Virus record (IMG/VR): IMGVR_UViG_3300025070_000022 | Location: 25,941 to 89,940 of that record | Source of the DNA: a virus | Length of the DNA stretch: 64,000 nucleotides | Reading direction: 5' to 3' (one strand) | Part shown: piece after piece, positions 9,189-64,000 of the stretch | Layout: every line of letters starts with the position of its first letter | Position numbering within the stretch: the stretch's first letter is position 1 | The notes under the pieces: generated by a model | The model's database searches: none | Told to the model about the DNA's origin: nothing | The model's input: only the letters and a program-made list of their open reading frames with translations | Translations under genes and position numbers: made by a program

Positions 9189-9189
9189 T

Positions 9190-10074
9190 ATGGAAGTAGT
9201 TTATGGACACACAGACTCAATCTATGTCAAGGTAGATTCTATAGAGTCGGCCTTTTCATCTCTCGAAAAAATAAATGAAGAAGTTAGAACTATCTTTCCT
9301 AATTTACTAGGCCTAGAAGAACACCCTGTTATTCTAGAATTTGAGAAATACTTTGAATCATTAGGTGTAGGAATTACAAAAAACAGAAACGCTGGTTTAA
9401 TTTCTTGGGAAGATGGAGTTTGGTTAGACGAGCCTAAATTTACTCTAACAGGATTTACTTCTAAGAGAATTTCCGAAACAACAACGATGAAAGAAGTTCA
9501 AACAGTGGCCCTCAATATGTGGGTTTCCGGTAAATCGGAACTAGAAATAGTCGATTACGCTAAGTCTGTTTATGCCAAAGTCCTTTATGGGGAAATCAAT
9601 TACCGTGAAGTAGCAAAAAGAACTAGACTAAAGAAAGAGAGATTCCAAGTCAAATGTACCTGTAATAGAAAGTACGACATTAGAGAAATATCTTGGACTG
9701 ATGGTGAGTTCTTTTGTGGAAAGTGTGCAAAACACCCTTCTAAGTTCCTAACAGCCAAGGGAAAGAAGCCGACTATAAGCGAAGGCATTGTAGGTGTATT
9801 GTATTCCATGCAAGAAAGAAACCTTACCTTTGAAGACTCCTATGTATTCTTAAGAATAAGACCAGTTGGATTCTTTACTGACCCCTTAACCGGAGTTCGT
9901 AAAGAAGCCACTTATGTTTCCGGAAATACTTTTTCCGAGATAGAGGGTTTTGAACCCGATTGGCCCCACTACGCCGAACAAGTAGTGAAAAAAGTACAAC
10001 CCATTTTCGATGCTATGGGTTGGGATACTAAACAAATTAAAACTAAGCAACGAACTTTTGATGAATGGTGGTAA
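9190..10074 (+). CDS. polB: Family B DNA polymerase, C-terminal subunit (motif C, thumb)
   Basis: MEVVYGHTDSIYV, LEFEK, KNRNAG, PIP-box-like QRTFDEWW; ATG at 9190 after GGAGG. Confidence 0.9.
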   Translation: MEVVYGHTDSIYVKVDSIESAFSSLEKINEEVRTIFPNLLGLEEHPVILEFEKYFESLGVGITKNRNAGLISWEDGVWLDEPKFTLTGFTSKRISETTTMKEVQTVALNMWVSGKSELEIVDYAKSVYAKVLYGEINYREVAKRTRLKKERFQVKCTCNRKYDIREISWTDGEFFCGKCAKHPSKFLTAKGKKPTISEGIVGVLYSMQERNLTFEDSYVFLRIRPVGFFTDPLTGVRKEATYVSGNTFSEIEGFEPDWPHYAEQVVKKVQPIFDAMGWDTKQIKTKQRTFDEWW

Positions 10075-19376: not shown

Positions 19377-19707
19377 CCTCTATGCTAATGTAAAAATCAA
19401 TTTCTTCTCCGGAAGTAAATGGCCCTATTCCATCGAATGTAACTCTAGACAACATTTCTGTGTATCCGCTATTGAAAATTCCTATTTCTCTTATTGTGTA
19501 TCCAGCAACGGAGGAACCCAAGAGAGTGAATTTGAAATCTACAATGTTCCCGTCACTAGTAGTAGAAGAAGCAGAAATATCGTATATGGGTACATCTAGG
19601 TTAATAGATGCCGGATTGGTAGAGTTACCACCCACTCCCACCCTAGCCTTTGTAAATGTGTTTTTCAAATGCAAGGCAATGTTTTCTCTAACGGAATCTA
19701 CTATCAA
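19369..19707 (-). CDS. Tail/baseplate small protein
   Basis: VGVGG, TIREIGIF..., LSRVTF pattern typical of fibre-attachment proteins. Confidence 0.6.
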   Translation of the reverse strand: MIVDSVRENIALHLKNTFTKARVGVGGNSTNPASINLDVPIYDISASSTTSDGNIVDFKFTLLGSSVAGYTIREIGIFNSGYTEMLSRVTFDGIGPFTSGEEIDFYISIEVE

Positions 19708-22700: not shown

Positions 22701-25700
22701 TAGGAAAAGTCTAGCGGCTTTAGGGTCTAACTGTTCCAAGAAATCTTTAATGTAAAAGTTAGATTTAATTCTACCACCTAATGTAGAGTCGTGTGAAGTA
22801 AAAACTTTATCTCTAGAGTGACCTGCTTCATGTACCACATAATCCCAAAATAGTGAACCACTAGCAGGGAAATATCCCCTCTCCTCAACTGGCAAGTGTA
22901 AATGAGAAGTTTCTCTAAATCTACTAGGTATTTTTTCTAAGGCGGTAGAACTTCTTCCTTGATTCATTTTGTAGGACGAAGCATAGTATTGAACCGAACT
23001 ACTACCATCATAGTAATTAGCATCGGAAGCCCTACCAACCTCTTCCTTTTCTGCGGTACTAACATCAGTAGTGTGATATTTACTAGCAATCACTTGTGTT
23101 TTTCTATTAAAAATTCCTTTCTCTATGTGGTTTATTTTGTAAAGAGGAACTCCATATTTTTCAACATAGGTTTCGACCAATTCGTGAGTTAGTGCTGTAG
23201 TTGGTCTAAGATAATTGTAGTAGGTTGGCTTCTGCATATCATCAGCCCCATAATCAACTCCTGCTTCAATTCCATATTGAGAATTCAATAGAGTTATCAT
23301 CTTACCCCCATGTAAATGCTCTCCATTCACTAGGTACAAATTGTGAGTATTTTTTCCGGAATACTGATTATTTGCTGTAGTTGTGAACCCTAATGTAGAA
23401 ATGGTTTCACCCAAACTGAAATTATTTACTGCCCTATCTAAGAAAACTCTCCAAGTATCTACCCCACTTGAAACTGTATTATAGCATACTACTTGAGTAC
23501 AATATCCTACAAATACAGAACTCAAATAAATAGGCAACCCTACATCTGCCACTGTCTTGATAGTAGAAGTATTGGACGGGTTAATGTCTAGGTATTTGTT
23601 ACCATCAACATCAAAACCACTACCACTACTAGTAGTAACACCTATTGTGGTTAATGTGGTATCGTAAGTATCGCTATCATTATGGTCTACTCTTCCTAAA
23701 GTTACAGGGAAGTAAGGGGCTAATTCTATGGTGGTTTTTCCATCTACAGTAGAGGTGTTCAAAACAGTAAAATCAATCAAGGTATTGACTGTTTCAAAGG
23801 TTTCATAATTTGTACCTCCATCACTTAGTTTGGCTTGGAACGCTTCTTCCTTTCCTATAGAAGAGGGGTGTTGTATATGAAATCCAACGGCATTGCTATC
23901 AACTCCGGAAGTTCTAGAAGTAGTACTCCCACTCAGTAGAGTACCGTCTAGTTTTTCGCCACTGTTGAAAAGTAATCCCTTGTCACTATTTCCCCCTAGG
24001 CTAGTAGCAAAGGTGGGTAGTTTATTGTTAGCAGATAGGGCTTTATTTAGAATATAATTTGTTTCTACTTCTTTCCATAGTTGTATTTCATTGACAGTAT
24101 CAGTACTCATTGCTTCCGCCAATGGTAAATTTTTCAAAGATATTGTAGTTTTTCCTATTGATGGAAAGTTTAGTGTTGTGGTCGCTCCCTCTCCTATGTA
24201 CGCTACTACACCATTTGTGTATTTTACAAATAGTTTTTTATTTACTAAACCAGTACTAAAATTAGTGATAGCAAAGGTTTTATTGTTAAAAGTTAAATCT
24301 CCCCCACTGTCCAAAACCCCGACAAGTTCTAACTTATTGTGTGGACTTCTAGTTGAATAGATAATATCCTCCGAAAAATTAGAATTACGATTTACTATTG
24401 GAGAAATTAGTTTTGAATAGTTATCCCTACCGGAAATAGTCATAGTACTCATACCCATATTTTTGTCTATTTCTATTTGTTCTATTTCTCCGTTGAATCT
24501 CTCTACTTCAATGATATATTGTCCGGAGACATATTCCAAAGAAGTGTAAGCAACATTGTATTTTTTACCTATTGAGTTATTGAAGGATAGAGTTAGAAAC
24601 TTTTGGTCTTTATTTGAACTCGTTACAGTCGCTTCAAGTCCTGCATAATTCTTATCCAAGAAAACTATTTTTAGTTGACTTTCTCTTCCTTCAATGAAAG
24701 GAAAGGTAGTGAGTAGATTGCTCTTAGATGAACTAAAGGCTCTACGATATAATCTATCACCTGCGCTTAGTGTATAGGAAGAGGTAGAGAAGGAACTTTC
24801 TGTGTCTAATCTAGAACTAGTAGTGAAAGTAATATCTTGTGTAAATGCACTAGCATTGAAAGCATCAATTGTATCAACTCTTACTACTCTAGACCCTACT
24901 AATATTTCATCATCTAATGATAACAAATTCGCTAAATCATATCCTTCTTCTGTAGTAAATGTGTACTCATTTCCTGTGACATTTGCCTTCACTGTCGCCT
25001 TGAGGGGGAACCATTCAAAGAACTCACCCCTATGCTGTTGCTGTCGAACTCTAAAAGCCTCAAACTCCCCTACCTTTGAGGACATGATTCGGGAGGTGTC
25101 TACAATTCTTGACTCCGCATAACCCCCCCTCCCGCCAAATGATTCTTTCAAATTGGTGCTAATAACCATAGGGACTTCGTTGGCTGTTTCGGGAGAATAG
25201 CCGTAGTGAAGATACCGATATGGGCCAACTAGATTGAGAGCGGATTTCACATTGTTGTCGTCACGCCTAGCATGGTAAAACGATTCATCATAATCTGTGA
25301 AGTCATTATTCACTAATGTCAATCCTTCATTAGAAGTCTGTTTGGTGCTAGTATAACTGCTAGTACTGGGGTCGTCTAGTACCTTTAAATTGTCAACAAG
25401 CGCAGTTTTAATGTTAAACTTACTGTAGTCTTTAACAGAAAAACCATAGTCTTGAGAAGTAATAAATGTGTTTGTCACAAATGAACTAATGGTAGCACTG
25501 CCCATTTGAGAAGAAGCATATTTGACATAATATTTTTTATTGTGGTCAAGTTGATTCTTCTTATCTAGTCTAGAATTGTGAAAGTAAAATAGGGGTTTAG
25601 AACATAGCAATGATTTATTCATTCTGTAGGTAGTGCTACCCGCAGTAATTTCAGTAGCAAGAACACCACTACTCACCGCCACTATAGTAGATTCATCCTC

Positions 25701-26189
25701 ATCATCTCCTCTAAATACCATGAATTTAGTGTCCTTGGTAATAGAAGAACCTAGTCTCGGCTCAAATTCAAAACTATCCCCTGCAACATCATCAGTAGTA
25801 AATTGTGTAATTCTAGCAAAGTGGTGAGTTAATCCACTATCCGAGTTTATCAATACATAGTGATTATAGCCATTATCAGTAGAATTTAGGCGAATGCCTT
25901 CTTCAGTAATGCTATCATAGCACTTTATTTTGTACCCCTCGGTATTTTCTAAATTGGAATATTGTGTACCGGCAGAATCCGAACCTTGTAATTGCTGAAC
26001 GAAAATGTCATTATTAGAATCATCAGTAGATATGTAAGTGAACATTCTATGGGTATCAGTACAAGTAAGCGTATCGTGAATAATAGGATTCGTAGGGCAA
26101 TCGAAATTGACATTGTTACCTGCGTTTCCTAGAGTGGCTTCCACAGTAGGATTTATTGCAGTACCCTTACGCATAGCATATACTGTCAT
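19704..26189 (-). CDS. Large tail hub/central tail protein (2161 aa)
   Basis: Position after the tape measure and distal tail genes; TISGRD and C-terminal NEVRVY...ELG hub-like segments. Confidence 0.65.
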   Translation of the reverse strand: MTVYAMRKGTAINPTVEATLGNAGNNVNFDCPTNPIIHDTLTCTDTHRMFTYISTDDSNNDIFVQQLQGSDSAGTQYSNLENTEGYKIKCYDSITEEGIRLNSTDNGYNHYVLINSDSGLTHHFARITQFTTDDVAGDSFEFEPRLGSSITKDTKFMVFRGDDEDESTIVAVSSGVLATEITAGSTTYRMNKSLLCSKPLFYFHNSRLDKKNQLDHNKKYYVKYASSQMGSATISSFVTNTFITSQDYGFSVKDYSKFNIKTALVDNLKVLDDPSTSSYTSTKQTSNEGLTLVNNDFTDYDESFYHARRDDNNVKSALNLVGPYRYLHYGYSPETANEVPMVISTNLKESFGGRGGYAESRIVDTSRIMSSKVGEFEAFRVRQQQHRGEFFEWFPLKATVKANVTGNEYTFTTEEGYDLANLLSLDDEILVGSRVVRVDTIDAFNASAFTQDITFTTSSRLDTESSFSTSSYTLSAGDRLYRRAFSSSKSNLLTTFPFIEGRESQLKIVFLDKNYAGLEATVTSSNKDQKFLTLSFNNSIGKKYNVAYTSLEYVSGQYIIEVERFNGEIEQIEIDKNMGMSTMTISGRDNYSKLISPIVNRNSNFSEDIIYSTRSPHNKLELVGVLDSGGDLTFNNKTFAITNFSTGLVNKKLFVKYTNGVVAYIGEGATTTLNFPSIGKTTISLKNLPLAEAMSTDTVNEIQLWKEVETNYILNKALSANNKLPTFATSLGGNSDKGLLFNSGEKLDGTLLSGSTTSRTSGVDSNAVGFHIQHPSSIGKEEAFQAKLSDGGTNYETFETVNTLIDFTVLNTSTVDGKTTIELAPYFPVTLGRVDHNDSDTYDTTLTTIGVTTSSGSGFDVDGNKYLDINPSNTSTIKTVADVGLPIYLSSVFVGYCTQVVCYNTVSSGVDTWRVFLDRAVNNFSLGETISTLGFTTTANNQYSGKNTHNLYLVNGEHLHGGKMITLLNSQYGIEAGVDYGADDMQKPTYYNYLRPTTALTHELVETYVEKYGVPLYKINHIEKGIFNRKTQVIASKYHTTDVSTAEKEEVGRASDANYYDGSSSVQYYASSYKMNQGRSSTALEKIPSRFRETSHLHLPVEERGYFPASGSLFWDYVVHEAGHSRDKVFTSHDSTLGGRIKSNFYIKDFLEQLDPKAARLFLFATSDLLPYSKLRDDSLFYSNRDLKNFSLYLLNKPTEDTTSDKHSKYGGSGKAKKYLDNDYDTANILEYDVEDITKMTTFGLMRLTELVFDSTMNQINPEHLPNKTKTMRIFNYHFYEFTDLGTTFGFRDSDDAILTTSDVSSSLSANDIICDSDGNMIGEVSSVSTTTITLKNLYHGDSTRKIVKTTSSGGIATGNLFKAVKRQAIFRGHGDSKGASEFDSSIHPLISILHGGKFENDTSTTEIGGALNGLTATSNHHSHLILPMTQGSSSNNAPFIDNSAVTGHSSLLLKHYNSLLDATVNATTPSQFLRYGFMGVVLDRFDTEDGSILSESGTVTPPINNAHLREYPNGTLLNYGFTVRPNLFDNPIGTVRGGNSSLESTTTSDGEGVYMGFKLRIKLPSSASVRGPSGTTLYKYTLNSSDYPYLDFIKDLTGCYLVSEKGIEYGTGTTITQTVDLDTQQPAINNTSPSSMGYVVTHEIDSGSSTKRHIVLSDVNLPTGYYRVMQPNETCTYEYTPSKIKINTLSSEYTKMPYKNETYSTIKDYLIKGENSPKRSLTYSTGTAIENMGHNEGVLSMYCTVDLDGKVVSGTKEHVVSRSPLLALYQFADIETKKAEIPSTLCISDGNTAFKTSTEIDWLGTGDGDIVGRGLAITFGKHKLTKGIVSLSDTITITTNKNLKGKPVRAVIGTGVTIGEETETLINNLFEENDIEFTTGYSDDYPLIVAPNLKGTDLFSAINYLIEKKNKRLIYDNNKFSIKDQKDSAFSPKITITDAKNELQIVNFSQSDVLFDFYNEVRVYSNDKIAVRKNGSSIRERGRKVLEINDNSLSTQQEVDDRAYNLLRLHSSSNKKISLELGHRNLGQVRPSDIIGLELLQEGIAYSKYVILEMEHTQIGTIKLELGKFTKGLTDRFAEILKNTKKIEAQSRSDSFDNVRTSKDFFEKISLTERKIVVKKRANASANSFNLGFEQTLGFDLNLGLSAGGNTLETILEDEF

Positions 26190-43025: not shown

Positions 43026-44231
43026 TCAAATGTTACCGCCAACAGCCTTATGAATGTCGCTCCAACTCATGTCAGCAATCTCTTCTGTAGAGAAAACCTT
43101 AGTGGTTGTAGCGGCTTCTGTAGCCTTGCGGATTGTGTTCTTTTCTTCTGTAAGTGACTTACGGAGTTCGGAGAACTCTGCGTTAAGTCGTGCGATTTCG
43201 GATTGTGCATCATATTCTGCCTTAGCAACTAAGTCTGCTCGGTTAGTTTCTTCCGAAGCGAATCTCTTAGCGAAGGTTTCTTCGAGAGTTTCGAGTCCCA
43301 TCTTCTCAAGTTGTTCTGCTCGGTATTGCTCGTAAGCCTTCTCGATGTTTGAAGCACTTAGGTTAAGAGTGCGGAATTCTTCGTTAGCAAAGGTCTTACT
43401 AACCATTCCTTCTTTCTTTGCTTGCGCTCCAGCACTTGCCATAGGTTCACCGGCTCCACCAAGATTAGTTTCGTCGTTTCCATCAAGAGTAGTACCCTTG
43501 GCTTCCGGAGTTGACCCACCTTCTGCGTCTTCGGTATCCATGTATTCATCCATTTTCTCATTCAATGGGTGGCCGCCAGACATTTCCATTGATGGTTCTT
43601 CTTCTTCTTTTCGTAGCGTGTTGACTTCTTCTAGAAGAGTATCTAGTTCTGCCAATGCCTTTTCTAATTTGTTCATTGTTTTGTCCTCCTTTAATATATC
43701 GAACCTCGCTTCGGGGTTGATTCCTTTTTCGCATATTGTGACTTCGTGGAGTTCTAGTTTGCTTATCTCGCTATACTCCCCTAATTCATCGTGGTGTTTC
43801 TTCACTTTTTGTAGTGCTTGTCCACCTATGCTAAAAGACCTCAATGACCCCTTGCGAATTCCTCGGTTTATTTCCTTTGCTTTTTCAATATCATCTCTTA
43901 ATTTAATTACTACGAAGAACCCAACATCATCTACTTGGGTCTTCCATAGTTTTCCATTACTATCTCTATGAGATTCAACTACTTCTCCAACTTGAACATT
44001 GGAGTGATTAGTCATAACATTGCGGAACTTATTGTGTTCCATGAATTTTTTAACTGCCTCATTTAAGGCTTTGAGAGTAATTAAATCATTTTGCTTATCT
44101 ACCATTTCGATAGAAGCATAGCCTCCAATCATTAAATCATCATTCGACGCCTTCAAGATGGAGAAGTCATTCTCCTCCATTGCAGACATAATCGTAGACA
44201 TGATGCTCAAGCCGTCTTGTAGCAAATACAC
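43026..44231 (-). CDS. Prohead protease fused to scaffolding domain
   Basis: IGGYAS..VDKQND, H, SFSIGG, LHEVTIC..GINP; acidic coiled-coil C-terminal half; true start may be ATG at 44201 or 44189. Confidence 0.85.
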   Translation of the reverse strand: MYLLQDGLSIMSTIMSAMEENDFSILKASNDDLMIGGYASIEMVDKQNDLITLKALNEAVKKFMEHNKFRNVMTNHSNVQVGEVVESHRDSNGKLWKTQVDDVGFFVVIKLRDDIEKAKEINRGIRKGSLRSFSIGGQALQKVKKHHDELGEYSEISKLELHEVTICEKGINPEARFDILKEDKTMNKLEKALAELDTLLEEVNTLRKEEEEPSMEMSGGHPLNEKMDEYMDTEDAEGGSTPEAKGTTLDGNDETNLGGAGEPMASAGAQAKKEGMVSKTFANEEFRTLNLSASNIEKAYEQYRAEQLEKMGLETLEETFAKRFASEETNRADLVAKAEYDAQSEIARLNAEFSELRKSLTEEKNTIRKATEAATTTKVFSTEEIADMSWSDIHKAVGGNI

Positions 44232-44238
44232 TATTTAA

Positions 44239-46725
44239 CTAGTTCGGTTGTTTAGTGTATTTTAAGCCTTTGAACTTGTCTTCATAAATATTCCAAATAC
44301 CTTCGTCAGTATCCTTATCTACTGGCTTCTGCTCATATCCAGTCCATGCTAACCACATATCTTTACCTTCTACTGGAACTACTCTAAAGTGAATCTTAGT
44401 TTCAAACTTATTTCCATTTAGAATGTATTCATGGTATCCATGTCTTTGTACTCCCATTTCTACATCTCCAAGGTCAATTAGTTTTTCCTTTGAAACATTT
44501 GTAGAGATTTGAGCAGGGAACTTAGTAGCCTTACCAAACAGCGAGAATATATCATCATCGGAGTCTAGGTCAATATACCAAGATAAGTTCTCACCTTTGT
44601 AATTCACAATAAAGTCCAAGTTTCCATCCTTTCTAGAATAGACTTTGAATTCTGCTTTTTCCGACTCCTTTTGAATTTCACTATCGTCAACAGAAATTTT
44701 ACCATTATTATATGACATTCCTTCCGAGGCTTGTACCCAAGAACCGAGCCTATTCTTGTCGCTTTCTAAAACAGATTCATAATCCCCTGCATGATTGCCA
44801 GCCAAGAAATTGTGCAAATCTCCTATGGTCTGCGGCTTACCCTTTCCTTTTACAAACTGTTTAATTGACGCTCTCAACTTTCCTTGAATAGTTTTTAGAG
44901 CCATCTCCGCTTCTTGTTTCCACATATCTAAGTCTGCAATAGCATTCTTAGACATTAAATTATTCTCATTAAATCCATAAATGGTAAATCCATCCATGCT
45001 CTTAGCAATTAAAGTAGCACTACCATGTATGTTATCGGTAATCGTTATCCCTTTCTTGAGTGCTTCTACCTTGTACTTCAAAGACGGCTTAGTATCCTTA
45101 GATAATAATTCTAAGGTCACAATCTTATCGGGAGTAGCGGCTTCCGGAACCTCGATTACTTTGGCAGAATATAGAGTAAATCTACCATCCGACTCCTTTA
45201 CCTCATCTACCTTGACTCTAATAATTTCTCCAACCTTAACATCTATCTTGGTATTTAGTGCCTTACCTACATTCATGTAGAGTTTGTTATCCATTTCTAC
45301 TATATGCTTTCCTTCTTCTAGAACTGGGCCAGCCCCTAATGAATAAGAGAATAAGCCGGACTTAGTAGACTTCTTATCTAGAACTAGCATATCTAAATCT
45401 ACAAATTTCTTCCACTTAACCCACTTTGGGTTTTTCTTAGTTCCTACGAAATAAGTAGAAGTTAGGTCTTTGATAACAACCCCTTCCGCAGTAGGCATCT
45501 CCATTATTTCCTTAGCATATTCTTCTATGTCTTTCAAAGAATCTGCAATTCTAGTATCTTTCTTAGAAGGGAATGCAATAGCATCGGAAGACTTTGCTGA
45601 ATAATTATTGAATAGAATGTTAATCCTAATCTGTAGTTCATCATCCATCAAGTTCTTCTCTTCATGTCGCATTATGTCGAAAACATGCGCTCTTAGTTTT
45701 GCTTCGGGATATTTATTCTTGAATACATGAGCAACTGTATCTGCTCTATGTAGGGCTTTATCGCCATCGAATAGAATGAGTTCTGCATCTAGAATACAGT
45801 CACCATAAGATTTCTTTTTCATTTCTGCTACTTGTTCAGTACATTTTTCAGTAATGTCCTTACCGTTAAATGAAAAGATTTCAACCTTATCATCAATCTT
45901 ATGAATTTGTATTCTCATTCCATCGTACTTTTCTTGTACGACATAATCTCCGGAGAATCCCATCAATTCATTCATATCTTCAATATCGAAGATACGATAC
46001 ATCGGTTTGTTAGGAGTTAGGAAGTTAGAGATGGCCTTCTCTTCCTCGGACTTTTCTGCCTTCTTTAATTCTACTCCAACTAATTTACTCCAGTCTTCTT
46101 CGGAGTGTCCGGATAAAAATACCTTCTTGAGTTCCTTTAGTGCATTCTTGAATTTAGAATTCACCTTCTTACTATCTTTATCGTCGCCATAGTGTTCTAT
46201 AACGAATAGAGGAACATCATTCAATGCTAAGTCTAGTCCTTCCAAACCATCAGTTATCTCGTCGCCTTGATATTCTAATTCATTATAGAGTTTAGAAGAT
46301 AGGGCATCATCACCGTTTCTAATTGCATAGTGAATGAACTTCATAAAAACATCTACATTCGATAGTAGAGATTCTAGTACATTCCCTTTCATTTTCTTAG
46401 AGAATGGGTCGTTGACATTCTCGGAGTCAAATCTCATTTGCTTAACAGAATCATAGATAATTTTAGCGGAGCCACTTGTAGGACTACCTGCATCATCGGA
46501 TTCAAGGTGACGCTCATCTAAATATTCTTTGAGTTCCTTACCAAGAGGACTAAGGCTATCATACGATTCCTTAATTTTCTCAAGTATATTTCTCCAGCGA
46601 CCCCCATACTCTTTAGGGTCACTTCTTGCAGATAAATAAGCGACTCTAGTTTCCTCGAAGAGAGATAAAATCTCATTAGATAAGGGAGCCTTATCCTTCT
46701 CGAACATTAGACCAGTGGTTGCCAT
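44239..46725 (-). CDS. lig: ATP-dependent DNA ligase with N- and C-terminal extensions
   Basis: EKYDGMR, ILDAE, VFDI, EGVVIK, WVKWK and OB domain. Confidence 0.9.
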   Translation of the reverse strand: MATTGLMFEKDKAPLSNEILSLFEETRVAYLSARSDPKEYGGRWRNILEKIKESYDSLSPLGKELKEYLDERHLESDDAGSPTSGSAKIIYDSVKQMRFDSENVNDPFSKKMKGNVLESLLSNVDVFMKFIHYAIRNGDDALSSKLYNELEYQGDEITDGLEGLDLALNDVPLFVIEHYGDDKDSKKVNSKFKNALKELKKVFLSGHSEEDWSKLVGVELKKAEKSEEEKAISNFLTPNKPMYRIFDIEDMNELMGFSGDYVVQEKYDGMRIQIHKIDDKVEIFSFNGKDITEKCTEQVAEMKKKSYGDCILDAELILFDGDKALHRADTVAHVFKNKYPEAKLRAHVFDIMRHEEKNLMDDELQIRINILFNNYSAKSSDAIAFPSKKDTRIADSLKDIEEYAKEIMEMPTAEGVVIKDLTSTYFVGTKKNPKWVKWKKFVDLDMLVLDKKSTKSGLFSYSLGAGPVLEEGKHIVEMDNKLYMNVGKALNTKIDVKVGEIIRVKVDEVKESDGRFTLYSAKVIEVPEAATPDKIVTLELLSKDTKPSLKYKVEALKKGITITDNIHGSATLIAKSMDGFTIYGFNENNLMSKNAIADLDMWKQEAEMALKTIQGKLRASIKQFVKGKGKPQTIGDLHNFLAGNHAGDYESVLESDKNRLGSWVQASEGMSYNNGKISVDDSEIQKESEKAEFKVYSRKDGNLDFIVNYKGENLSWYIDLDSDDDIFSLFGKATKFPAQISTNVSKEKLIDLGDVEMGVQRHGYHEYILNGNKFETKIHFRVVPVEGKDMWLAWTGYEQKPVDKDTDEGIWNIYEDKFKGLKYTKQPN

Positions 46726-55507: not shown

Positions 55508-56941
55508 TCAAAAGTTTAGTCCCATTATGCCGCCACGCCTATTATTTACAGGCGCATCAAATATCCCCAAATCATCTAACAATAAGAAGTTTTCACTAAT
55601 GGTCTTGGTAGCCGCATTAGCCAATGCTAAACTCATTACCATATCGTCGTGTGCGCCAACTCCCTCAAACTTACCTTTCTGCGTAATAGAAAACATAGAT
55701 AATTCTTCAATCAATGCAGAAGTAACTCTTCTACTTTCTTCGTTAGCATAAGGTAGGTTTATTTTTTCATTCTCAAAATTCATTTGTAGATTCAAGATAA
55801 TATCCTGTTTCTTTTTTCTTGTTGTATTGAAATCGTGGACATTTAAATCAGAAATGTTTCTCAATTCTTGTGTAAAGGATTTAGCGAATACATTTGTTTC
55901 AAACAAAATGACTTCCGGTTGAAAGATTTTACCTATCAATCTAACTTTTTGTAGATTCTCCCTAAACTCTACATTCTTAGCCCTGTCTACATAAACAACA
56001 CTTTTGTTATCTTCTTCATCTACTTCCAATACAGTGATTACATTGTAGTCGCCGTCAGTAGAGATAGCAGGGTCAATACCAACATAGTACTTGTAACCCT
56101 CTCTACGAGTGGGCTTCAAGACTAAACTTTTGTTCTTAGACCTCTCTAAGTATTCGGGATTGAATAGCGAAGTACCAGTGGATACAGGAACACAAAGGTA
56201 TTCCCTTGTGAATTTAAGCGAGCCTATTTCTGCCTTCCTAGCCATGAGAGCCTCATAGTCCCAACGATTAGGCCAAAGAGGTTCATTAAGAGAGTTAAAA
56301 CAAGGATACTTTCTAACTGTATATGCCTCGTTTTCCTCTAGTTGAGTGTAAATATCCGTGTAAGAGAAAGGAGTTCCAATAACACGAAGAGAAGCGGAGT
56401 GGTGTAGAGTTGGTATCATGTCACCATAAAACCAATCTGTAACCTTTTGAATTGCAGTTAAACTAAACTCTTTCAAAGGGTCGTCAATAATAATCTCTTG
56501 AGGGTGAAGACCACGAATCTGTGAACCAACAGAACGCTCAAGAATTTGATTTCCATTAGTGAGAGTAATGTTTCCAATAGCCCAACCCTTAGCAGGTTTG
56601 AAATGTTTAATTGTAGGGTTATTGAATACCTTGTCAATGTCTCTCATGTGAACCATAGTCTGCTTTTGGTTAGAGGAAATGTAGAGCATTTGATATGGGG
56701 GTGGTTGGAAGATTAAATTCCAAACAACCCATGAGTGCATGAAGACAGACTTACCGTGACCTCGACTACAAATGATTACTGTTCTTTGAGTCTGCCCCAT
56801 TAACTCAAGCCACTCTTGTTGATGACTTGCGAAATCCCAACCTAGAACATTTTCAAAGAAATAAGGAAATGAATTCTTAGATAGTTCTAAGTCCATTTGC
56901 CGTTCTAGGTTTAACCCTGCAATGTCAGACATATCGCTCAC
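55508..56941 (-). CDS. terL: Terminase large subunit
   Basis: HQ, SRGHGKS, IIIDD, VIGTP, GIDPA, HDDMVMSLALA. Confidence 0.95.
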   Translation of the reverse strand: MSDMSDIAGLNLERQMDLELSKNSFPYFFENVLGWDFASHQQEWLELMGQTQRTVIICSRGHGKSVFMHSWVVWNLIFQPPPYQMLYISSNQKQTMVHMRDIDKVFNNPTIKHFKPAKGWAIGNITLTNGNQILERSVGSQIRGLHPQEIIIDDPLKEFSLTAIQKVTDWFYGDMIPTLHHSASLRVIGTPFSYTDIYTQLEENEAYTVRKYPCFNSLNEPLWPNRWDYEALMARKAEIGSLKFTREYLCVPVSTGTSLFNPEYLERSKNKSLVLKPTRREGYKYYVGIDPAISTDGDYNVITVLEVDEEDNKSVVYVDRAKNVEFRENLQKVRLIGKIFQPEVILFETNVFAKSFTQELRNISDLNVHDFNTTRKKKQDIILNLQMNFENEKINLPYANEESRRVTSALIEELSMFSITQKGKFEGVGAHDDMVMSLALANAATKTISENFLLLDDLGIFDAPVNNRRGGIMGLNF

Positions 56942-56952
56942 CCCTTCTTCTA

Positions 56953-57279
56953 CTATTCTTGTTCTTTTATGAAATCGACCTTTCTTTTAAAAGCCTGATA
57001 AAAATTCGACAAAGCCAGTCTAATATCAAAAATATCATCGTATGGCCAATCGTCCATATAATCTTCCATCTTGGCAATTTGCCTACTGATAAAAAATATG
57101 ATGTCTTCTTCGTAGTTTTCTCCTTCAAGTACTCTTTTAATATCAGATAACCTACCGGCAAACGACTCCCAATGACCGCCATATTGATTATGTCCTTGTC
57201 GGATTTTGTTTTCTAAATCCTCGTATCTTTCTAATAGGGTTTCTGTAGTTTCAAACTTTAATATTCCTTTCCAACTCAT
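56953..57279 (-). CDS. WxxILK-tagged acidic protein
   Basis: MSWKGILKF, ATG at 57279 after GGTGA. Confidence 0.65.
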   Translation of the reverse strand: MSWKGILKFETTETLLERYEDLENKIRQGHNQYGGHWESFAGRLSDIKRVLEGENYEEDIIFFISRQIAKMEDYMDDWPYDDIFDIRLALSNFYQAFKRKVDFIKEQE

Positions 57280-57284
57280 GTTAA

Positions 57285-59699
57285 TCACCTGAAATTAGCC
57301 TTCACATAATAGACTACTTCTTCGGAAACACCAACATTCGATGAAATACTAGAGAAAGAGTCCACTTCTTCGACCATCTTTACAATGTCCATAGAAGTTA
57401 AATCTAGGTTGAATCTTTCTCTAGAAGAGGTAATGATTGAGTCCATATCATCAATAGAAGAAAGAGAGCCTTGCCCATAGTAGATAGGCAACCCCTTGAG
57501 TATTCTAAGTGAATCGTGTATCTCTAGAATCTTCTCTTCTATTTCCGACTTTCTCAATTCATTTAGTATCTGTTTAATGTTTCTTGCTCTAACCGCACCC
57601 TTGTTACTTATCTGTTTGGCGTTTCCTTCATCTAAAAGGAATTCCTTTAATGCCGACATTACTGTCAATGAAGTGGCTTCTATTCGTTCTTTACTGACAG
57701 GACTCTCCTCCCTAAATTCCGGATAAGGCACACCCATAAAACGCAGTCCTTGTTGAGGATTTTGACTTCTAAGGTTAATTTTACCAAGGAATTGAGCCAT
57801 CTCTTCATTGTATTGTTTGATTATATCTTTATCTCTAAAGATTCTTTTGAGAGAAGATGCTAGCAACCTAGCAGAATTGAAAACCTCTTCATGTTCAATG
57901 TTAGGAGTATTGATTGATTTCAAAAAATCTAGAATATTTTTCAAATCATCATTCTTTAATAGTCTACCTCTTCTAGTATTCGACCTCTTCACTAGTCTAG
58001 TATAGACCTTAGCAAAATCACTAGAACTCAAAGTCTTAATAGATTTGAACGCAGTAGTATTTTTTATTCTAAAGTTTAAATCCAAAGTCATAGCCGGATT
58101 CAAAAGTGGCTTATACAGATAATCGTCTAAAGCCTCAAGAACACTATCTAGTTTCTTCTGCACATCTTTACCTAATTCTCTAGGAAGGCCCTTAGCGGAA
58201 GGGTATGCAGAAACATATGAGTCGCCTCCTCTACCATCTCCCTTTCCTCCTTGGCCTCCTCTAGGTCCAACCACAGTCCCGCCAGTAGACATTTTTTGTT
58301 GCATTGTAATCTCTTCTAGAGTCATAAGAAGAGATTGTATAGCCCCGTTTATTTTAATTGGGCGAATGCCAGAACCAAACCTTCTAGCGAGGTCTGCACT
58401 ATCTAATATCTGCGCTGGCAAATAGAAAGAAGAACCGGAAACAGGTTGTATTTGTCCCATTCTTTCTATGGCTTTATCCAACCTTTCTATCTCGGCTCTA
58501 GACTCTATAATATAAATGATTTTCATAGTTTTTGCCATATTTCTTATTTTGTCTAGTTCTGTAGAATCAGTTAGAATTCCATAAGCGTACTTAGATAAAT
58601 AATTGTAGCCAAGCGGGTCTATTTCAGTCGTTAGTAGGTTGACGAATTCCGGTGAGTCCTCCCTAATTTCTTCAATTACATCATCTTCTAATTGTTCCGA
58701 AACTTCGCTTCCGCTTGTTCCACTATCTCCTTCAAATTGTATGCTTGCTCTACCTAGACCCTCGAATAAACTAAAGACAGCATCATCCGCTCCTTGTTTT
58801 TGAACTGTAGCCTTACCTAATTTAACCACATACTGACCATTTGCATTAAACAATTCATTGGAGGTATGTAATTTAGCCCCGTACTCTTTCATCCCTCCGG
58901 ATTTTAGAGAAGCAATTAAAGATTTAACCGCCTCATACACATCAGCGTGTTTAGGGGCTACCCCTTTCCATGCAGAATAAATAGACCTTCTTTTGCTCTT
59001 ACTGATGTAAGGTTCATTTCCAATAAAAGATAACACATCATCTCTAATGTCTACAACAATACGCTCGCCATCTTCGTCAAACTCTGATTCCAGTACCTCG
59101 CTATAGTAGGCGTCTATTCCTTCCAACACCTTTTCTACTTCTGGCATAAATTTACTCAATAGTTCTGTATCGTCTTCGTCTAGAGAATTAATTCTTGTTC
59201 TTATTCTATCCGAAGACTTGTTTGGTTTATTTCCTGTAAAGGGCCTCTTGACAATAATATCTTTGTTGGAAAAGGTTCGATTCAATACTTCTACAGTAAT
59301 TTTTTTTCCTTTAATGGTGATTCCGGAAAATATCTTCGATAGAATTTTATTTTGGAATAGAACTTCATCGAATTCTCTAACACTTTCGTCTTCTATTACT
59401 TTCTTTCCATCTTCTTCGACATATTCCGGAGTTAATTCATCGGCTTTATCTTTAGCCAACTTTCTGTACTTTCTTTTAGTGGCTAGATTCACTTCTTTGA
59501 TAGCAGTCACTCTTTCAGTAGCCCCTACTGGCACTTCCTTCTCCCTAAATTCAGTAGCCAAGTCTTCTCCAATTTTAGTAATGGTTCTTTTCATAGTAGG
59601 GAAGGGGGACTTCCCCCTATCTTCAATTAACTTAGCCTTTTGAAATATGGTCTTTTCTTGGGAAGCCACTCTCTTCTCTAGTTCTAATTTAAAACTCAT
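57285..59699 (-). CDS. Large hypothetical protein (possible internal virion protein)
   Basis: 804 aa between terminase subunit genes. Confidence 0.55.
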   Translation of the reverse strand: MSFKLELEKRVASQEKTIFQKAKLIEDRGKSPFPTMKRTITKIGEDLATEFREKEVPVGATERVTAIKEVNLATKRKYRKLAKDKADELTPEYVEEDGKKVIEDESVREFDEVLFQNKILSKIFSGITIKGKKITVEVLNRTFSNKDIIVKRPFTGNKPNKSSDRIRTRINSLDEDDTELLSKFMPEVEKVLEGIDAYYSEVLESEFDEDGERIVVDIRDDVLSFIGNEPYISKSKRRSIYSAWKGVAPKHADVYEAVKSLIASLKSGGMKEYGAKLHTSNELFNANGQYVVKLGKATVQKQGADDAVFSLFEGLGRASIQFEGDSGTSGSEVSEQLEDDVIEEIREDSPEFVNLLTTEIDPLGYNYLSKYAYGILTDSTELDKIRNMAKTMKIIYIIESRAEIERLDKAIERMGQIQPVSGSSFYLPAQILDSADLARRFGSGIRPIKINGAIQSLLMTLEEITMQQKMSTGGTVVGPRGGQGGKGDGRGGDSYVSAYPSAKGLPRELGKDVQKKLDSVLEALDDYLYKPLLNPAMTLDLNFRIKNTTAFKSIKTLSSSDFAKVYTRLVKRSNTRRGRLLKNDDLKNILDFLKSINTPNIEHEEVFNSARLLASSLKRIFRDKDIIKQYNEEMAQFLGKINLRSQNPQQGLRFMGVPYPEFREESPVSKERIEATSLTVMSALKEFLLDEGNAKQISNKGAVRARNIKQILNELRKSEIEEKILEIHDSLRILKGLPIYYGQGSLSSIDDMDSIITSSRERFNLDLTSMDIVKMVEEVDSFSSISSNVGVSEEVVYYVKANFR

Positions 59700-61594
59700 T
59701 CAACTTCCTCCAGTAAATCTCTATTCTGTAATGCCTCGTAAAGTTCTTCACCAACTTCATTAGTATAGAACCTACGCCTCTTAGCAATGTCTTGTAATTT
59801 ATCTCGAACTCCTTCCACAATAACAGAAACAACTTCACCTAAAGAACTAGCCAAACTGTTTTTGAATTTTCCAATATCGGATTCTATTTTTGTTAGTAAT
59901 TGCTTGTCTGCGGTTGTTAGGTATTCATCTATTGTCTTATCCAAATCAATAGTGATAGATTCCATAGTATCATCTAATAGATAACTAAAATTGGTTAAGA
60001 CGCTCAAACCTTCAATAGGTTGTAGGCGGGCTTTGTATGCCATATCCATAGCGTATTCATCAAATTCAAAGACCCCTCTCGTTTCGTCTTTCTTGGCCCT
60101 ATCAATTTTATCAGCAAATAAAGAAAAGATTAGTCTATCATCTGCATCCGTTAGAGTAAAAGAAACTGTAGAATTTTTAATAGGGATTGAAGAGGGTATT
60201 CCTGTTAAAGATTCAATAGTTGGAATTAGTGCTACAATTGTATTCGTGAAATCATTTTTAGGCATTTTAGTAATTCCGGATTTAGTGATAATTTCGTTTG
60301 CATAATCGGAAGGCAACTCTTCAATTTCATCTTCCAAATCTTCTCTATCAACTTCTTCTAGTTTTTCCAACCATTCGGGCGATTCCCCCTCTAATAAAGG
60401 CTCGATAACTTCCCAAATATCTCCTCTTAAATACAAAGAATCGCCCCTATCTTCATCGAAGATTTGTTCAATATCTCTATTCGATATATATGATTCATCC
60501 CTAATAGATTCAAGAGTATCCTTTAACACTTCATCTCTGTCTATTAAGAGTTTTAACAAAACAGGATTAACAGTGGATTTGCTAAAAAATGAAGAAGCAA
60601 CATTGTGCGGTCCCAGTTTAGGCAAAAGCAATGATTTCTTTTTCATCCTACCTATTTCCTCTAGGTAGTGGGCTACATCACTAGAGTCTAGTGTACCTTT
60701 AGGTCGCAAATCATTGCCCTCTATAACTATCTTCAAATCACTCTTTCCAAATAGTTTTTCATAGAAGGGAGGATATTCAAACACATAAACTAATCTGTCA
60801 AATTGTGTCAAGTCTTCGGTCAACCCTAGAGAAGTATAAGGCCCTCTCTCTTCTTCTATAGCCTCTCTAATTTGAGCCTCTCTTTCCTTGACACTATCAT
60901 CGTCGTCTATCTCTTCTAGTAAAATAAATCCGGTTTTCTTACCTGAGCCTGTTGGTCTACCTTCGGGAGTTTCTTGGCCAGTACCATAAGATGCTGTATA
61001 TCTCCCCCAACTAACTTGAGCCGAGGATTGAAACTCTTCATCGCTCTCCGGTTTATGCCTACTAGGACTCCCATAGTAATCTTCAACCGAATCAAACAAA
61101 GCATACTTGTCTATTTTTGCCTTGCCTAGTTCTCTTGATAGGTGTCGAGCATCATCATTCAAAACATAAGTCATTAACTTGTCTATGTCTTCTTCATTAA
61201 GACCATCGTTGGTGATTCTTTTGAAGAACTCTGCACTGCCTTCTGCCTTCGGTTGTGCTTGAAATAGCATGGCTATTTTTGGAGTCAAAATTCGCCTTAG
61301 TTTGGTAGGCTTCATTCCTAGTTTTTCAGCGAGGGGTTCAATGACGCTAGTAAATTCTTCTTGGTTTTTAAGAGCATCACTAACTGATGAACGAACTCCA
61401 CCACTAATTGTAATGGTCTTCAAGGCATCCATTATTTTACTAGCATCTGGATTTCTGCCCCCTGTTAGCGGCCTAGATAGATGGGCAACCAAAGGCTCCT
61501 CTCCACCTTCTCTTGCTAAGGCTCTAAATAGTGTACGAGGAGTATAAGGAACACCGGAGATGTTTTCGCTTCTAGGTGCTTTCCTTATTGTCAT
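59696..61594 (-). CDS. Large acidic hypothetical protein (possible internal virion protein)
   Basis: 632 aa. Confidence 0.55.
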   Translation of the reverse strand: MTIRKAPRSENISGVPYTPRTLFRALAREGGEEPLVAHLSRPLTGGRNPDASKIMDALKTITISGGVRSSVSDALKNQEEFTSVIEPLAEKLGMKPTKLRRILTPKIAMLFQAQPKAEGSAEFFKRITNDGLNEEDIDKLMTYVLNDDARHLSRELGKAKIDKYALFDSVEDYYGSPSRHKPESDEEFQSSAQVSWGRYTASYGTGQETPEGRPTGSGKKTGFILLEEIDDDDSVKEREAQIREAIEEERGPYTSLGLTEDLTQFDRLVYVFEYPPFYEKLFGKSDLKIVIEGNDLRPKGTLDSSDVAHYLEEIGRMKKKSLLLPKLGPHNVASSFFSKSTVNPVLLKLLIDRDEVLKDTLESIRDESYISNRDIEQIFDEDRGDSLYLRGDIWEVIEPLLEGESPEWLEKLEEVDREDLEDEIEELPSDYANEIITKSGITKMPKNDFTNTIVALIPTIESLTGIPSSIPIKNSTVSFTLTDADDRLIFSLFADKIDRAKKDETRGVFEFDEYAMDMAYKARLQPIEGLSVLTNFSYLLDDTMESITIDLDKTIDEYLTTADKQLLTKIESDIGKFKNSLASSLGEVVSVIVEGVRDKLQDIAKRRRFYTNEVGEELYEALQNRDLLEEVE

Positions 61595-61643
61595 ATTGTT
61601 TCCCCGAATAAAGGCAATAGTCCACTCTATAATAAATGAACTG

Positions 61644-61805
61644 TCAATCTAACTTTGTCTGCTGTGTTGCAGTATCTTCCTTCGGTGGCGGAGTTTCCTT
61701 GGGTTCATTTCCCCATTCTTCTGCTGGAATTGTAGATACGGTAGCACCTTCTGTAAGTTTTTTGGGGAGTTTGGTTTGTCTTTTGAGAACACTTTTCCAA
61801 CTCAT
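61644..61805 (-). CDS. WxxILK-tagged microprotein, 53 aa (not in ORF track)
   Basis: MSWKSVLKRQTKLPKK...TQQTKLD, AGGAG upstream. Confidence 0.6.
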   Translation of the reverse strand: MSWKSVLKRQTKLPKKLTEGATVSTIPAEEWGNEPKETPPPKEDTATQQTKLD

Positions 61806-62152
61806 TGTAATCTCTCCTACATCAATCTCTTTGCTTCAATCAAATACATATACTGTTTTCTTAATCCCATCTTTGAAGTAACGGCCCCTGCTAGTTTCTT
61901 TAAATTCTTTTGAAAACTGAAAAATTCGGGAGAGTAAAGGTCATTTAACTCATCTTTATCTTCAACCCTTTCGTAGTATTCATCAAATTTATTCAATAGG
62001 GCCTCACCCGCTTGCTTTATTTTGGGGTCTTCATTGTAGGCCATAAAGAAAAGTAATTCGTGAACATGGCCATGTAAAGGGGCATCTCCATCTTCAACAT
62101 ACCAAGTATTTTTTAGTATATTCTCCCAACTCATTGTAATCTCTCCTGCATC
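61797..62152. repeat. 27-bp direct repeat with one mismatch (61797-61823, 62126-62152)
   Basis: CCAACTCATTGTAATCTCTCCT(A/G)CATC; flanks ORF 61817-62134. Confidence 0.85.
61817..62134 (-). CDS. WxxILK-tagged accessory protein
   Basis: MSWENILKN; flanked by a 27-bp repeat. Confidence 0.7.
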   Translation of the reverse strand: MSWENILKNTWYVEDGDAPLHGHVHELLFFMAYNEDPKIKQAGEALLNKFDEYYERVEDKDELNDLYSPEFFSFQKNLKKLAGAVTSKMGLRKQYMYLIEAKRLM

Positions 62153-62784
62153 TTTTTCTTAATGTCAAGCCAAATTTCCGGATTGTTCTGTGCTAACACT
62201 TCTTGAACAACTTGCATCTGTGCGACAATAATTGTATCTTGTCGCTTGTGGACAAGTTTGCCTTTGAACTCCATCATGTATTTTAAAGACTCACGAACTT
62301 CTCTAGCCAACTTCACTAGAGCGTCTAATTCCTTAGCATCTAAATCATCTCTAGATGCTATCTCGGTGATTTTATCATCGAGCAATTGAATGTTATTTGA
62401 TAGCATATCGACCTCATTCAAATCTTTCTTGGCAATAATAGCCGCCGCAGACTTTTGAACAACGGGCTGTAAATGGTGCTTAACATGTCGATGGACTTGG
62501 GCCTTAGAAATTCCAAGGCCTACGCTGACCTCCTCGGCTGTGATTAGACCCTCATGCAATTGCCTTTCGTATTCTGCCCTCATTGGGTCTACACAAATGG
62601 CACACTTTGGATTACTACTTTGCACATATTCTCCCATGTGATTTCTTTGATGCTGTGCAGAAGTACCGCTTCTCCAGTTCATCTTTTCATCTAATTCATC
62701 GGGAGTAATAGTAAGAGATTCTAAGTCGGCTTCCATAGAATCAACATCACTGTGTTGACAAAAGGCACAACTCTTTCTTCTCAT
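62131..62784 (-). CDS. Putative terminase small subunit
   Basis: Two CxxC + HTH + HxxxH repeats followed by a coiled coil; upstream of terL. Confidence 0.5.
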   Translation of the reverse strand: MRRKSCAFCQHSDVDSMEADLESLTITPDELDEKMNWRSGTSAQHQRNHMGEYVQSSNPKCAICVDPMRAEYERQLHEGLITAEEVSVGLGISKAQVHRHVKHHLQPVVQKSAAAIIAKKDLNEVDMLSNNIQLLDDKITEIASRDDLDAKELDALVKLAREVRESLKYMMEFKGKLVHKRQDTIIVAQMQVVQEVLAQNNPEIWLDIKKKMQERLQ

Positions 62785-63026
62785 TTCTGCACACCCGTAC
62801 TAATGATTTCAAATTCTTCTGTCTTATTACCAAGCATCTCTAATGAAACATAGATAGGTAGGTCGAAGCCAATGATAGGACGAGAGGAAGAATCGTAAAT
62901 CATCTTAGTCTTCACTGCGAACTTCTTTTCAATCATTTTAATCAGTTCGTCTAAACTTCCCGTCTTTCCAACGATTTCCTCTATTTCATCTAGAGTCATT
63001 TCTTTTAGTATGTTTTCCCAAGTCAT
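62781..63026 (-). CDS. WxxILK-tagged protein
   Basis: MTWENILKE, ATG at 63026 after GGTGA. Confidence 0.65.
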   Translation of the reverse strand: MTWENILKEMTLDEIEEIVGKTGSLDELIKMIEKKFAVKTKMIYDSSSRPIIGFDLPIYVSLEMLGNKTEEFEIISTGVQK

Positions 63027-63036
63027 ATTATTCACC

Positions 63037-63456
63037 CTATATCCCAAATTTTCCTTGAACATTAGGGTTGCCTTTTGAGGCTTGAATCATATCACCCATT
63101 CTTTCAACTTTGAAGCCAAATTGTTCTAATACAGGAATACCATGTTGTTGCACAAAATTAGCATCACCAAATAGGTCTTGTTGCATTTCCCATATTAACG
63201 CTCTATTACCGCTTCCTTTTCTTCCCCTACCTGTAAAATTTTCAGGAACTACCTTAATGGCAAATTTCCCATTTTTTTGAAATTCGGGGTCTTTTTTATA
63301 CGCACTAATTATTTCTGCCATATGTTTTTTTACATTTTCAATCTTCATTTTTTGATTATCAGTAAGTTTAGGTTCAGCAGAAGTCTTGTTTCTTCTAAAC
63401 CTACCAAACGGTGCTTTCTCTATTCCGTCTTGTTTTAGTATATCTTTCCAAGTCAT
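63037..63456 (-). CDS. WxxILK-tagged protein
   Basis: MTWKDILKQ. Confidence 0.7.
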   Translation of the reverse strand: MTWKDILKQDGIEKAPFGRFRRNKTSAEPKLTDNQKMKIENVKKHMAEIISAYKKDPEFQKNGKFAIKVVPENFTGRGRKGSGNRALIWEMQQDLFGDANFVQQHGIPVLEQFGFKVERMGDMIQASKGNPNVQGKFGI

Positions 63457-63836
63457 TCTTTCACTTCCCTATTAAAAATAATTTCAAACTCTTTTTCTCT
63501 TCTATCTGTTCCTTTCAGTTCCATGACTCTAGCAGTGTAATTGAATAGATTAGGATAGTTGTAAATCTCAGCACCTCCTATGGGAAATCTGTTTTTACTC
63601 GACAACTCTATTGAGATAGCAAGGTGAACTTTATTCGGTCTTTTACCCGTTGTTAAGAACCATTCTGCTAAAGACTTGTTTGGCGTATCCTCATTAAAAA
63701 CATCATCATTATCATAATACATAGTTGATAGTTTGCCCCTGCCTTTCACTATCTCCATGACTCTATTCTCTACTTCTTTTTTATCTAAGTAGTCGTAGTT
63801 TATTGTATCGCTTTTCAATATGTTTTTCCAAGTCAT
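63453..63836 (-). CDS. WxxILK-tagged protein
   Basis: MTWKNILKS, ATG at 63836. Confidence 0.7.
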   Translation of the reverse strand: MTWKNILKSDTINYDYLDKKEVENRVMEIVKGRGKLSTMYYDNDDVFNEDTPNKSLAEWFLTTGKRPNKVHLAISIELSSKNRFPIGGAEIYNYPNLFNYTARVMELKGTDRREKEFEIIFNREVKE

Positions 63837-64000
63837 AGTAGCACTTCCTTCCAACTTTTAATAACCGGACTAACCTTTACGCTCATGTTCGACTTCATGT
63901 AATCTTTAATCAATTTACGAGTCTTAGCCGGAGTCAACTCGATTGTGAATTCAGTAATGGTCCCTCCTAAGTCGGGAACTTTCATGTATCTAGATAGCAT
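63833..64000 (-). CDS. Partial protein ending in a KSWKEVLL motif
   Basis: Open frame from the window edge to TGA at 63835-63833. Confidence 0.55.
   Translation of the reverse strand: MLSRYMKVPDLGGTITEFTIELTPAKTRKLIKDYMKSNMSVKVSPVIKSWKEVLL

Follow-up and report, generated by a model that had tools for sequence, protein, structure and literature searches.

The stretch of DNA analysed here (the window) is the final 64 kb (64,000 nucleotides, nt) of an 89,940-nt virus record (IMG/VR record IMGVR_UViG_3300025070_000022, positions 25,941 to 89,940) that is rated complete by CheckV, and its sequence fits that of a magrovirus, a virus of ocean archaea. Viruses of this group are abundant, infect uncultured marine group II archaea and carry mostly genes of no known function. 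The element of interest is a short junction, present twice in the window, at which one minus-strand gene ends and the next one starts. The locus is made up of four minus-strand open reading frames (ORFs). The first, of 217 amino acids (aa; 62131-62784), has two CxxC pairs and a weak helix-turn-helix (HTH) and is the anchor of a variable island; its last 18 nt plus the stop codon are referred to as the master junction. It is followed by an accessory gene of 105 aa (61817-62134; cassette family F1), whose product starts with the tag M-S-W-E-N-I-L-K, by the next cassette, a tagged gene of 53 aa (61644-61805; family F6; start M-S-W-K-S-V-L-K), and by a gene of 632 aa (59696-61594; family F5), which lies at the far end of the island.

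On the minus strand, GATG(C/T)AGGAGAGATTACAATGAGTTGG was found at 62152-62126 and again at 61823-61797. The two copies are direct repeats, 329 nt apart and in the same frame, which are identical at 26 of 27 positions with an uninterrupted run of 22 nt. Searching the window with up to three mismatches returned exactly these two matches, none of 100 shuffles contained any match, and the whole record held these two copies only. Copy 1 (62126-62152; GATGCAGGAGAGATTACAATGAGTTGG; read directly) contains the final six codons of the 217-aa reading frame (ATG CAG GAG AGA TTA CAA) and its stop codon TGA (62133-62131), which overlaps the start codon of the 105-aa ORF (62134-62132) as ATGA; in context, the minus strand reads ...AAG AAA AAG ATG CAG GAG AGA TTA CAA TGA GTT GG.... 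The layout is ...M Q E R L Q stop, AGGAG, an 8-nt spacer, the ATGA overlap and the beginning of the tag (three codons, M S W), with AGGAG presumably acting as the ribosome-binding site. In copy 2 (61797-61823; GATGTAGGAGAGATTACAATGAGTTGG; context ...AGA TTG ATG TAG GAG AGA TTA CAA TGA GTT GG...), the frame is that of copy 1 and CAG is replaced by TAG (61819-61817), which is the stop codon of the 105-aa ORF. The codons after it (GAG AGA TTA CAA TGA) are untranslated, and the copy brings AGGAG, the spacer and an ATG (61805-61803) to the 53-aa ORF. We thereby confirmed two claims of the initial annotation of this DNA, namely that the junction is repeated on both sides of the ORF at 61817-62134 and that CAG became TAG in the second copy, ending the inserted gene. 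The annotation had also described one copy as the 3′ end of a terS-like gene plus an MSW start; the location was correct, whereas "terS-like" found no support, as the 217-aa protein had only weak HTH matches in Pfam (E 0.02-0.06, below the cut-off) and its gene lies 5.2 kb from that of the large terminase, which is located downstream past genes of 632, 804 and 111 aa. Neither Pfam nor PHROGs matched the 217-aa protein to a terminase family at E ≤ 0.1, and in Atlas it fell into clusters of hypothetical viral proteins only.

Nine minus-strand ORFs of the window (53-139 aa) start with M-S/T-W, and the 18 nt upstream are common to only two of them, the 105-aa and the 53-aa ORFs, showing that the repeat exceeds a common tag plus ribosome site. 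A looser repeat of 64 nt (75% identity) encloses the junction core. RNA folding left both junction copies unstructured (z +0.87 and +0.95; 166 and 167 of 200 shuffles folded as well), as would be expected of an open translation start rather than of a hairpin site. Similarly, none of the nine inverted-repeat pairs in 57000-64000 touched a junction copy, and the junction itself had neither dyad symmetry nor a hairpin. Directly upstream of copy 2 (61824-61836, minus strand), the last codons of the 105-aa gene (AAGAGATTGATG) resemble those of the junction (GAGAGATTACAATG), a partial and degenerate echo that an older junction may have left behind.

A search with the 217-aa protein returned 29 viral contigs (63-99% aa identity), which, as all relatives compared in this work, are metagenome assemblies. 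In the window and in each of the 29 loci (30 sequences), the gene ended in ATGCAGGAGAGATTACAATGA with 0-2 mismatches, and the next gene started M-x-W. The conserved stretch that closes the gene in all 29 relatives measured roughly 21-26 nt, and the exact 26-mer was present in 42 viral-contig stretches (57 occurrences with overlapping loci counted twice, 30 of them after the 217-aa C-terminus). The last 40 residues of the protein are conserved across relatives, and third codon positions showed 0.97-1.00 identity in the last six codons compared to 0.50-1.00 in the 34 codons before; synonymous sites frozen to this degree point to a constraint on the nucleotides. The 217-aa gene is separated from a large gene (514-840 aa), which in the relatives takes the slot of the 632-aa gene, by an island of one to eight small, co-oriented tagged genes, most of them unique to one array, and the junction recurs between island genes with up to seven copies per array.

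Junctions were scored as mismatches in the 17 nt upstream of the ATG, with tagged starts de-duplicated (144 in the loci). All 24 master junctions had 0-2 of 17 mismatches; among 59 tagged starts of the island, 11 were exact, 29 had at most four mismatches and the remainder reached up to 13 of 17. In contrast, none of the 61 tagged starts outside the island (56 upstream of the 217-aa gene and five downstream of the island) had five mismatches or fewer, the minimum being six, which argues that the element belongs to the island and not to tagged genes generally. The idea in the initial annotation that the ribosome-binding site and tag-coding DNA of tagged genes serve as recombination homology was therefore supported inside the island and did not extend beyond it. 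When 29 island copies were translated, six read as a ...QERLQ tail, five had an internal stop as in the window and 18 lay in another frame or behind an earlier stop. The island copies are DNA copies of the master rather than a protein motif, and the junction is repeated at the DNA level instead of being required by a protein or a ribosome site. Uninterrupted identity with the master ranged from 13 to 37 nt (33 copies, median 20, maximum 37). An A at position -7 occurred in two of two island copies where the master has it compared to two of 31 where the master has G (Fisher p 0.011, small numbers).

The 105-aa gene was not invariant in relatives, and alternative cassettes were found at the same site. 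The closest relative found (L082) shared 97.0% nt identity with the window over 499 nt of the 217-aa gene, 94.2% over the 53-aa gene and 92.2% over the first 1.2 kb of the 632-aa gene, lacked the 105-aa gene and carried five other tagged genes (92, 78, 63, 121 and 107 aa) between the same junction positions. According to BLASTN segment ends and ungapped alignments, the differing block covers 61819-62124 of the window (minus strand) and 1,453 nt in this relative (L082 535-1987), with homology stopping 9 nt past the first ATG (62125) and returning 13 nt ahead of the second ATG (61818). The 53-aa gene was also present without the 105-aa gene, next to other upstream neighbours, in L083 and L084, and the arrangement of the window recurred in L002, L005 and L081. 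At other slots, the 105-aa gene was found in L003 and L004 (slot 2, behind another insert) and in L085 (three slots from the 53-aa gene); L084 and L085 had three cassettes plus F6 in common. The metagenome search with F6 gave 13 loci, of which L086-L093 were left out (matches only to residues 10-31 or 10-53 at 48-73%, no island). Homologues of the 53-aa gene (85-94% aa identity; L002, L005, L081-L085) had four different upstream neighbours. All full-length F1 homologues (L002, L003, L004, L005, L081, L085) had ...K R L M as their last residues, with the TAG or TAA stop lying within their 3′ junction copy, suggesting that the mutated copy travels with the gene.

Empty sites, which the initial annotation had suggested looking for in relatives, were represented by a filled and empty pair for another cassette, with an 86-aa gene (...EEMQERLQ) between two identical junction copies in L010 and one copy at this place in L009. 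L021 and L026, whose 217-aa genes are 98% identical over the 300 nt compared, differ by one 375-aa gene placed directly behind the master junction (L021:4651-5944, L026:4651-4812). The next gene had the tag MSWKNQIKK in one and MIWKSILK in the other, and homology returned only past the tag, with no junction copy there; the tag region, too, can serve as an exchange boundary. We also compared the nt identity of cassettes with that of their flank, the 217-aa gene. Cassettes were more similar than flanks for F1 between L002 and L004 (94.9% and 80.2%), for F10 between L009 and L010 (98.6% and 80.2%) and for F8 between L015 and L028 (95.2% and 74.4%), while the F1 cassette was less similar between the window and L002 (86.7%) than the flank (95.5%) and the 53-aa gene (95.7%). 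Overall, alternative cassettes and the discordance between cassette and flank supported the proposal that tagged genes move as cassettes, by a mechanism that we infer in the following.

With a probability of roughly 70%, the two copies in the window are the footprint of homology-guided cassette shuffling at a repeated translation-start junction. In such a scheme, the 3′ end of the 217-aa gene would also be the region from which translation of the next gene starts, and selection would keep the junction for this role in translating the first gene of the island. Sister or co-infecting genomes could pair out of register at the 13-37 nt of identity, by strand invasion (unequal crossover) or by template switching in replication, and a crossover would add, delete or replace whole genes while the newcomer retains a ready ribosome site and start. 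Each out-of-register exchange would copy the junction. The 105-aa gene would be one such cassette, whose 3′ copy mutated from CAG to TAG and now provides its stop, and a crossover within the 22 identical nt of the window would delete this gene and leave the ...MQERLQ-stop and the 53-aa start intact. The recombination event itself, and general recombination rather than a site-specific recombinase as its enzymatic basis, are what we infer from the following. The tyrosine integrase family PF00589 had no match in the whole 89,940-nt record, while 14 of 14 control genomes were positive, bearing out the earlier remark that no integrase is in view, and none of the 66 ORFs scanned matched a recombinase or transposase family. 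The record encodes repair and recombination genes, namely a PD-(D/E)XK nuclease, an ERCC4 nuclease, a UvrD helicase and two ATP-dependent ligases, along with two weak AAA_24 matches, and PMC5434244 describes a RadA-like ATPase and several nucleases in magroviruses. Homology-guided exchange is favoured because recombinase families, symmetry and hairpins are all missing and general recombination genes are present.

Several points weigh against this reading. The uninterrupted identity is short (22 nt in the window) and would have to suffice for recombination in this virus or its host. Decay of the copies with distance from the master was weak (Spearman rho 0.31, p 0.018, n 59 non-independent), and the origin of the first downstream junction copy is left unexplained by the shuffling model. 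Breakpoints fell within -20 to +30 of a tagged ATG in 23 of 28 cases compared to 5.7% of random positions (21 close, non-independent pairs); this test is partly circular, since different genes between common flanks must diverge at gene boundaries. Neither a direct joint of the 217-aa gene to the 53-aa gene, which would be the exact empty allele for the 105-aa gene, nor an excised circle was found in the loci and Logan contigs. Many ORFs of the record match no family, and an unrecognised recombinase could be among them. Finally, strain chimeras in the metagenome assemblies on which all comparisons rest could mimic exchange.

An alternative explanation, which we consider unlikely, is functional convergence, in which selection would keep an optimal translation start, or the operator of a translational regulator, and genes would turn over by unrelated illegitimate recombination. 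The AGGAG at its usual distance from the ATG, the unstructured junction and the clear purifying selection on the master copy are what this explanation predicts. In addition, AGGAGAGATTACAATGAGTTGG was found exactly once in each of four Levilactobacillus species genomes (L096-L099) in a scan of the genome collection, where it is a gene start, indicating that such start regions can arise ordinarily. The four occurrences are probably one orthologous gene start and a coincidence; the exact 22-mer occurred in no archaeal genome of the collection, which leaves no host link. However, the 61 tagged genes outside the island work without the junction, and island copies include letters outside a ribosome site, namely ATGC and the closing codons of the 217-aa gene, which are often untranslated or out of frame. 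The decay of these copies further implies that they are not individually constrained, lineage-specific variants are common to the copies within genomes, and the discordance of cassettes and flanks needs exchange.

Slightly more doubtful still is that the junction is an integron-like attachment site, cut and rejoined by an unrecognised viral or host site-specific recombinase, with cassettes moving as circles. Its layout is that of small co-oriented genes lacking promoter-like conserved upstream DNA, at a fixed docking place by a conserved gene, and the extreme conservation of the master copy, the greater decay of copies farther from it and the many ORFs of the record that match no family would all agree with such a site. 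The lack of a tyrosine integrase in the record and of a resolvase or transposase family in the scanned ORFs speaks against it, as does a junction with no dyad symmetry, hairpin or inverted-repeat partner. Moreover, mismatches in island copies rise gradually from 0 to 13 with no core site retained, and the boundary between L021 and L026 lies in the tag, where there is no junction copy.

It is very unlikely that the mosaics are assembly artefacts, created from co-occurring strains that share the junction and its flanks, with true gene orders being stable. Read-level data, consulted as Logan contigs, contributed to both sides of this question. Logan contigs break at copy 1, where records 25 and 27 overlap only at 62118-62147, and many leave into unrelated sequence just past the tag (loose ends at 62111, 62126, 61794 and 61781). 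The "skip" joints of 281-336 nt had sides of 23-38 letters lying on the repeat itself; the joints seen had sides of at most 42 letters, on the repeat or the conserved 3′ end beside it, and the joint from 61822 to 62159 (7 other letters between, side 29) was a relative's 217-aa-gene end followed by the repeat. These joints speak neither for nor against an empty site or a circle. In run X8, summed Logan depth rose to 589.9 (61786-61839) and 199.5 (62110-62163) compared to 29.1 and 37.7 in the 105-aa and 217-aa genes, respectively. These spikes at both copies, which indicate many strains with the same repeat in one sample, fit many co-occurring magroviruses that have the junction in common and carry different cassettes. 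Against misassembly stands the length of the exact repeat within a genome, which is only 13-37 nt. Reads, and the final k with which assemblers usually work, exceed such a repeat in length. The same arrays were also recovered in separate records (the window, L002, L005 and L081; L084 and L085), one Logan contig (record 25) crosses copy 2 with 0 differences, and neither in-frame ...MQERLQ tails nor the TAG variant can be created by misjoining. Local tandem duplication, which would make the 105-aa and 53-aa genes diverged paralogues and could account for two same-frame direct repeats with a spacing of 329 nt, is scarcely credible and paralogy was rejected, as the two proteins did not cluster in all-against-all BLASTP (E 1e-4), the DNA past the tag is unrelated and each gene was found without the other in relatives.

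Going beyond cassette shuffling, we tentatively raise a more speculative possibility, namely that magroviruses keep a recombinase-free gene-capture platform. Its docking site would be the invariant junction that closes the 217-aa gene. There, any gene bearing the junction and the M-S-W tag codons could be inserted by the replication and recombination machinery of the virus itself and would be expressed immediately. The master copy would then be conserved partly for docking and not only as a ribosome site. Since the tag may be a capsid address, the island would amount to a rapidly renewed library of virion cargo for delivery into the host, a kind of "integron without integrase".

The tag M-S/T-W-x-x-[IV]-[LI]-K is found at nine minus-strand starts of the window (63836, 63456, 63026, 62134, 61805, 57279, 52911, 52302 and 51975). 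Among the 144 starts, the second codon was mostly of the form A-N-T (AGT 73, AAT 19, ACT 15), with serine rarely encoded as TCN (7), a bias that may stem from the ATGA stop/start overlap; codons 6-8 vary synonymously. By analogy, the M-S-W tag may address proteins to the capsid, in which case host-directed effectors should be sought in the island. An AlphaFold2 model of the 105-aa protein (predicted local distance difference test score 86, residues 1-10 below 50) predicted a confident all-helical bundle with a disordered tag set apart from the fold. Foldseek returned no match for it at E ≤ 0.001 in the PDB and BFVD (best 0.47 and 0.23), the best E in Pfam and PHROGs was 0.088, and its homologues formed 11 protein clusters, all of them unnamed. 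The 632-aa gene had no Pfam match.

Elsewhere in the record, Pfam matches included RFC, a split family-B polymerase, a chaperonin, a tail tube protein, the major capsid protein, a prohead protease (43026-44231; PF04586, E 2.3e-10) and a portal protein, and the large terminase subunit is at 55508-56941 (both matches just under the Pfam cut-off). This gene content agrees with the magrovirus gene set in PMC5434244. The family-B DNA polymerase is represented by two plus-strand ORFs (6396-8141 and 9139-10074), which cover PF00136 profile positions 41-196 and 221-342; the roughly 1 kb between them has no plus-strand ORF of at least 90 aa, and an intron or the remnant of an intein could account for the interruption, as could a split gene. 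The two ATP-dependent DNA ligase genes lie at 44239-46725 of the window (minus strand) and at L095:11267-12772 (plus strand), one of them encoding an 828-aa protein inside the structural module, and the same two-ligase arrangement is present in magroviruses described in PMC5434244. A 2,161-aa ORF in the tail region (19704-26189, minus strand) had no Pfam match at E ≤ 0.001.

Integrons hold ordered, co-oriented and promoterless cassettes behind a fixed site, with a repeat bounding each cassette, and operate with attI/attC and IntI. The magrovirus array is similar in its layout beside a conserved gene and in the repeat that bounds its cassettes, but the record has no integrase and no attC-like imperfect palindrome or hairpin, and the repeat supplies a ribosome site and a start codon. 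A second likeness is to the hypervariable internal-protein (ip) loci of T-even phages, whose N-terminal leader targets proteins to the capsid by directing them into the prohead and is cut off by the prohead protease, an enzyme for which the magrovirus record has a gene. The leader DNA itself was reportedly regarded as recombination homology by Repoila et al. in 1994. Unrelated proteins with a common short N-terminal leader are found here as well (nine in the window, 144 starts in the loci), similar to the ip loci of these phages, where, according to PMC3012670 and PMC12373910, unrelated small proteins at a hotspot have only such a leader in common and the set varies between close relatives. 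In magrovirus papers searched by terms (PMC5434244, PMC11706807, PMC10160649), neither recombination nor an N-terminal motif nor a repeat at gene junctions is mentioned.

Among described systems, the PeSL (promoter-early stem-loop) cassettes in hyperplastic regions of T4-type phages come closest (Arbiol et al. 2010, PMC2839356; Comeau et al. 2014, PMC4122927). PeSLs are short conserved expression signals repeated between small ORFans and concentrated in a variable region (PMC2839356); here, 29 of 59 island starts were within four of 17 mismatches compared to 0 of 61 outside within five, and most cassettes were singletons. The same text reports indels and replacements between close relatives that are bounded by the motif, and motif-bounded indels were observed here between the window and L082, L009 and L010, and L003/L004 and L002, in a test that is partly circular. 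In both systems, a cassette either carries its expression signal along or is given one on arrival. The mechanism proposed for PeSLs in PMC2839356 is general homologous recombination on patches of less than 50 bp, with no dedicated recombinase known, and mini-circles have been demonstrated there by inverse polymerase chain reaction, while the magrovirus junction is known from assemblies and contigs. The two signals differ in composition, since the PeSL is an intergenic unit of roughly 100 bp with a sigma-70 promoter, a stem-loop terminator, a Shine-Dalgarno sequence and a start, compared to roughly 17-26 nt plus tag codons in the magrovirus. No promoter plus stem-loop unit was apparent in the junction, which has no stable structure and whose conserved part begins 17-18 nt before the ATG, often inside the upstream ORF. 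A sigma-70 promoter is not expected in an archaeal virus. Because the promoter plus stem-loop composition is not shared, the magrovirus junction is an archaeal-virus analogue of PeSL cassettes rather than one of them. It serves as a translation start and lies at the coding 3′ end of a conserved gene, with some cassette proteins bearing a ...MQERLQ tail, whereas the PeSL is a promoter and terminator. The junction marks where magroviruses swap, gain and lose accessory genes, and one 22-26-mer provides a simple marker for locating the variable island in metagenomes. The principle known from PeSLs, that expression signals act as recombination handles, would thereby extend to archaeal viruses by way of a translational and partly coding signal.

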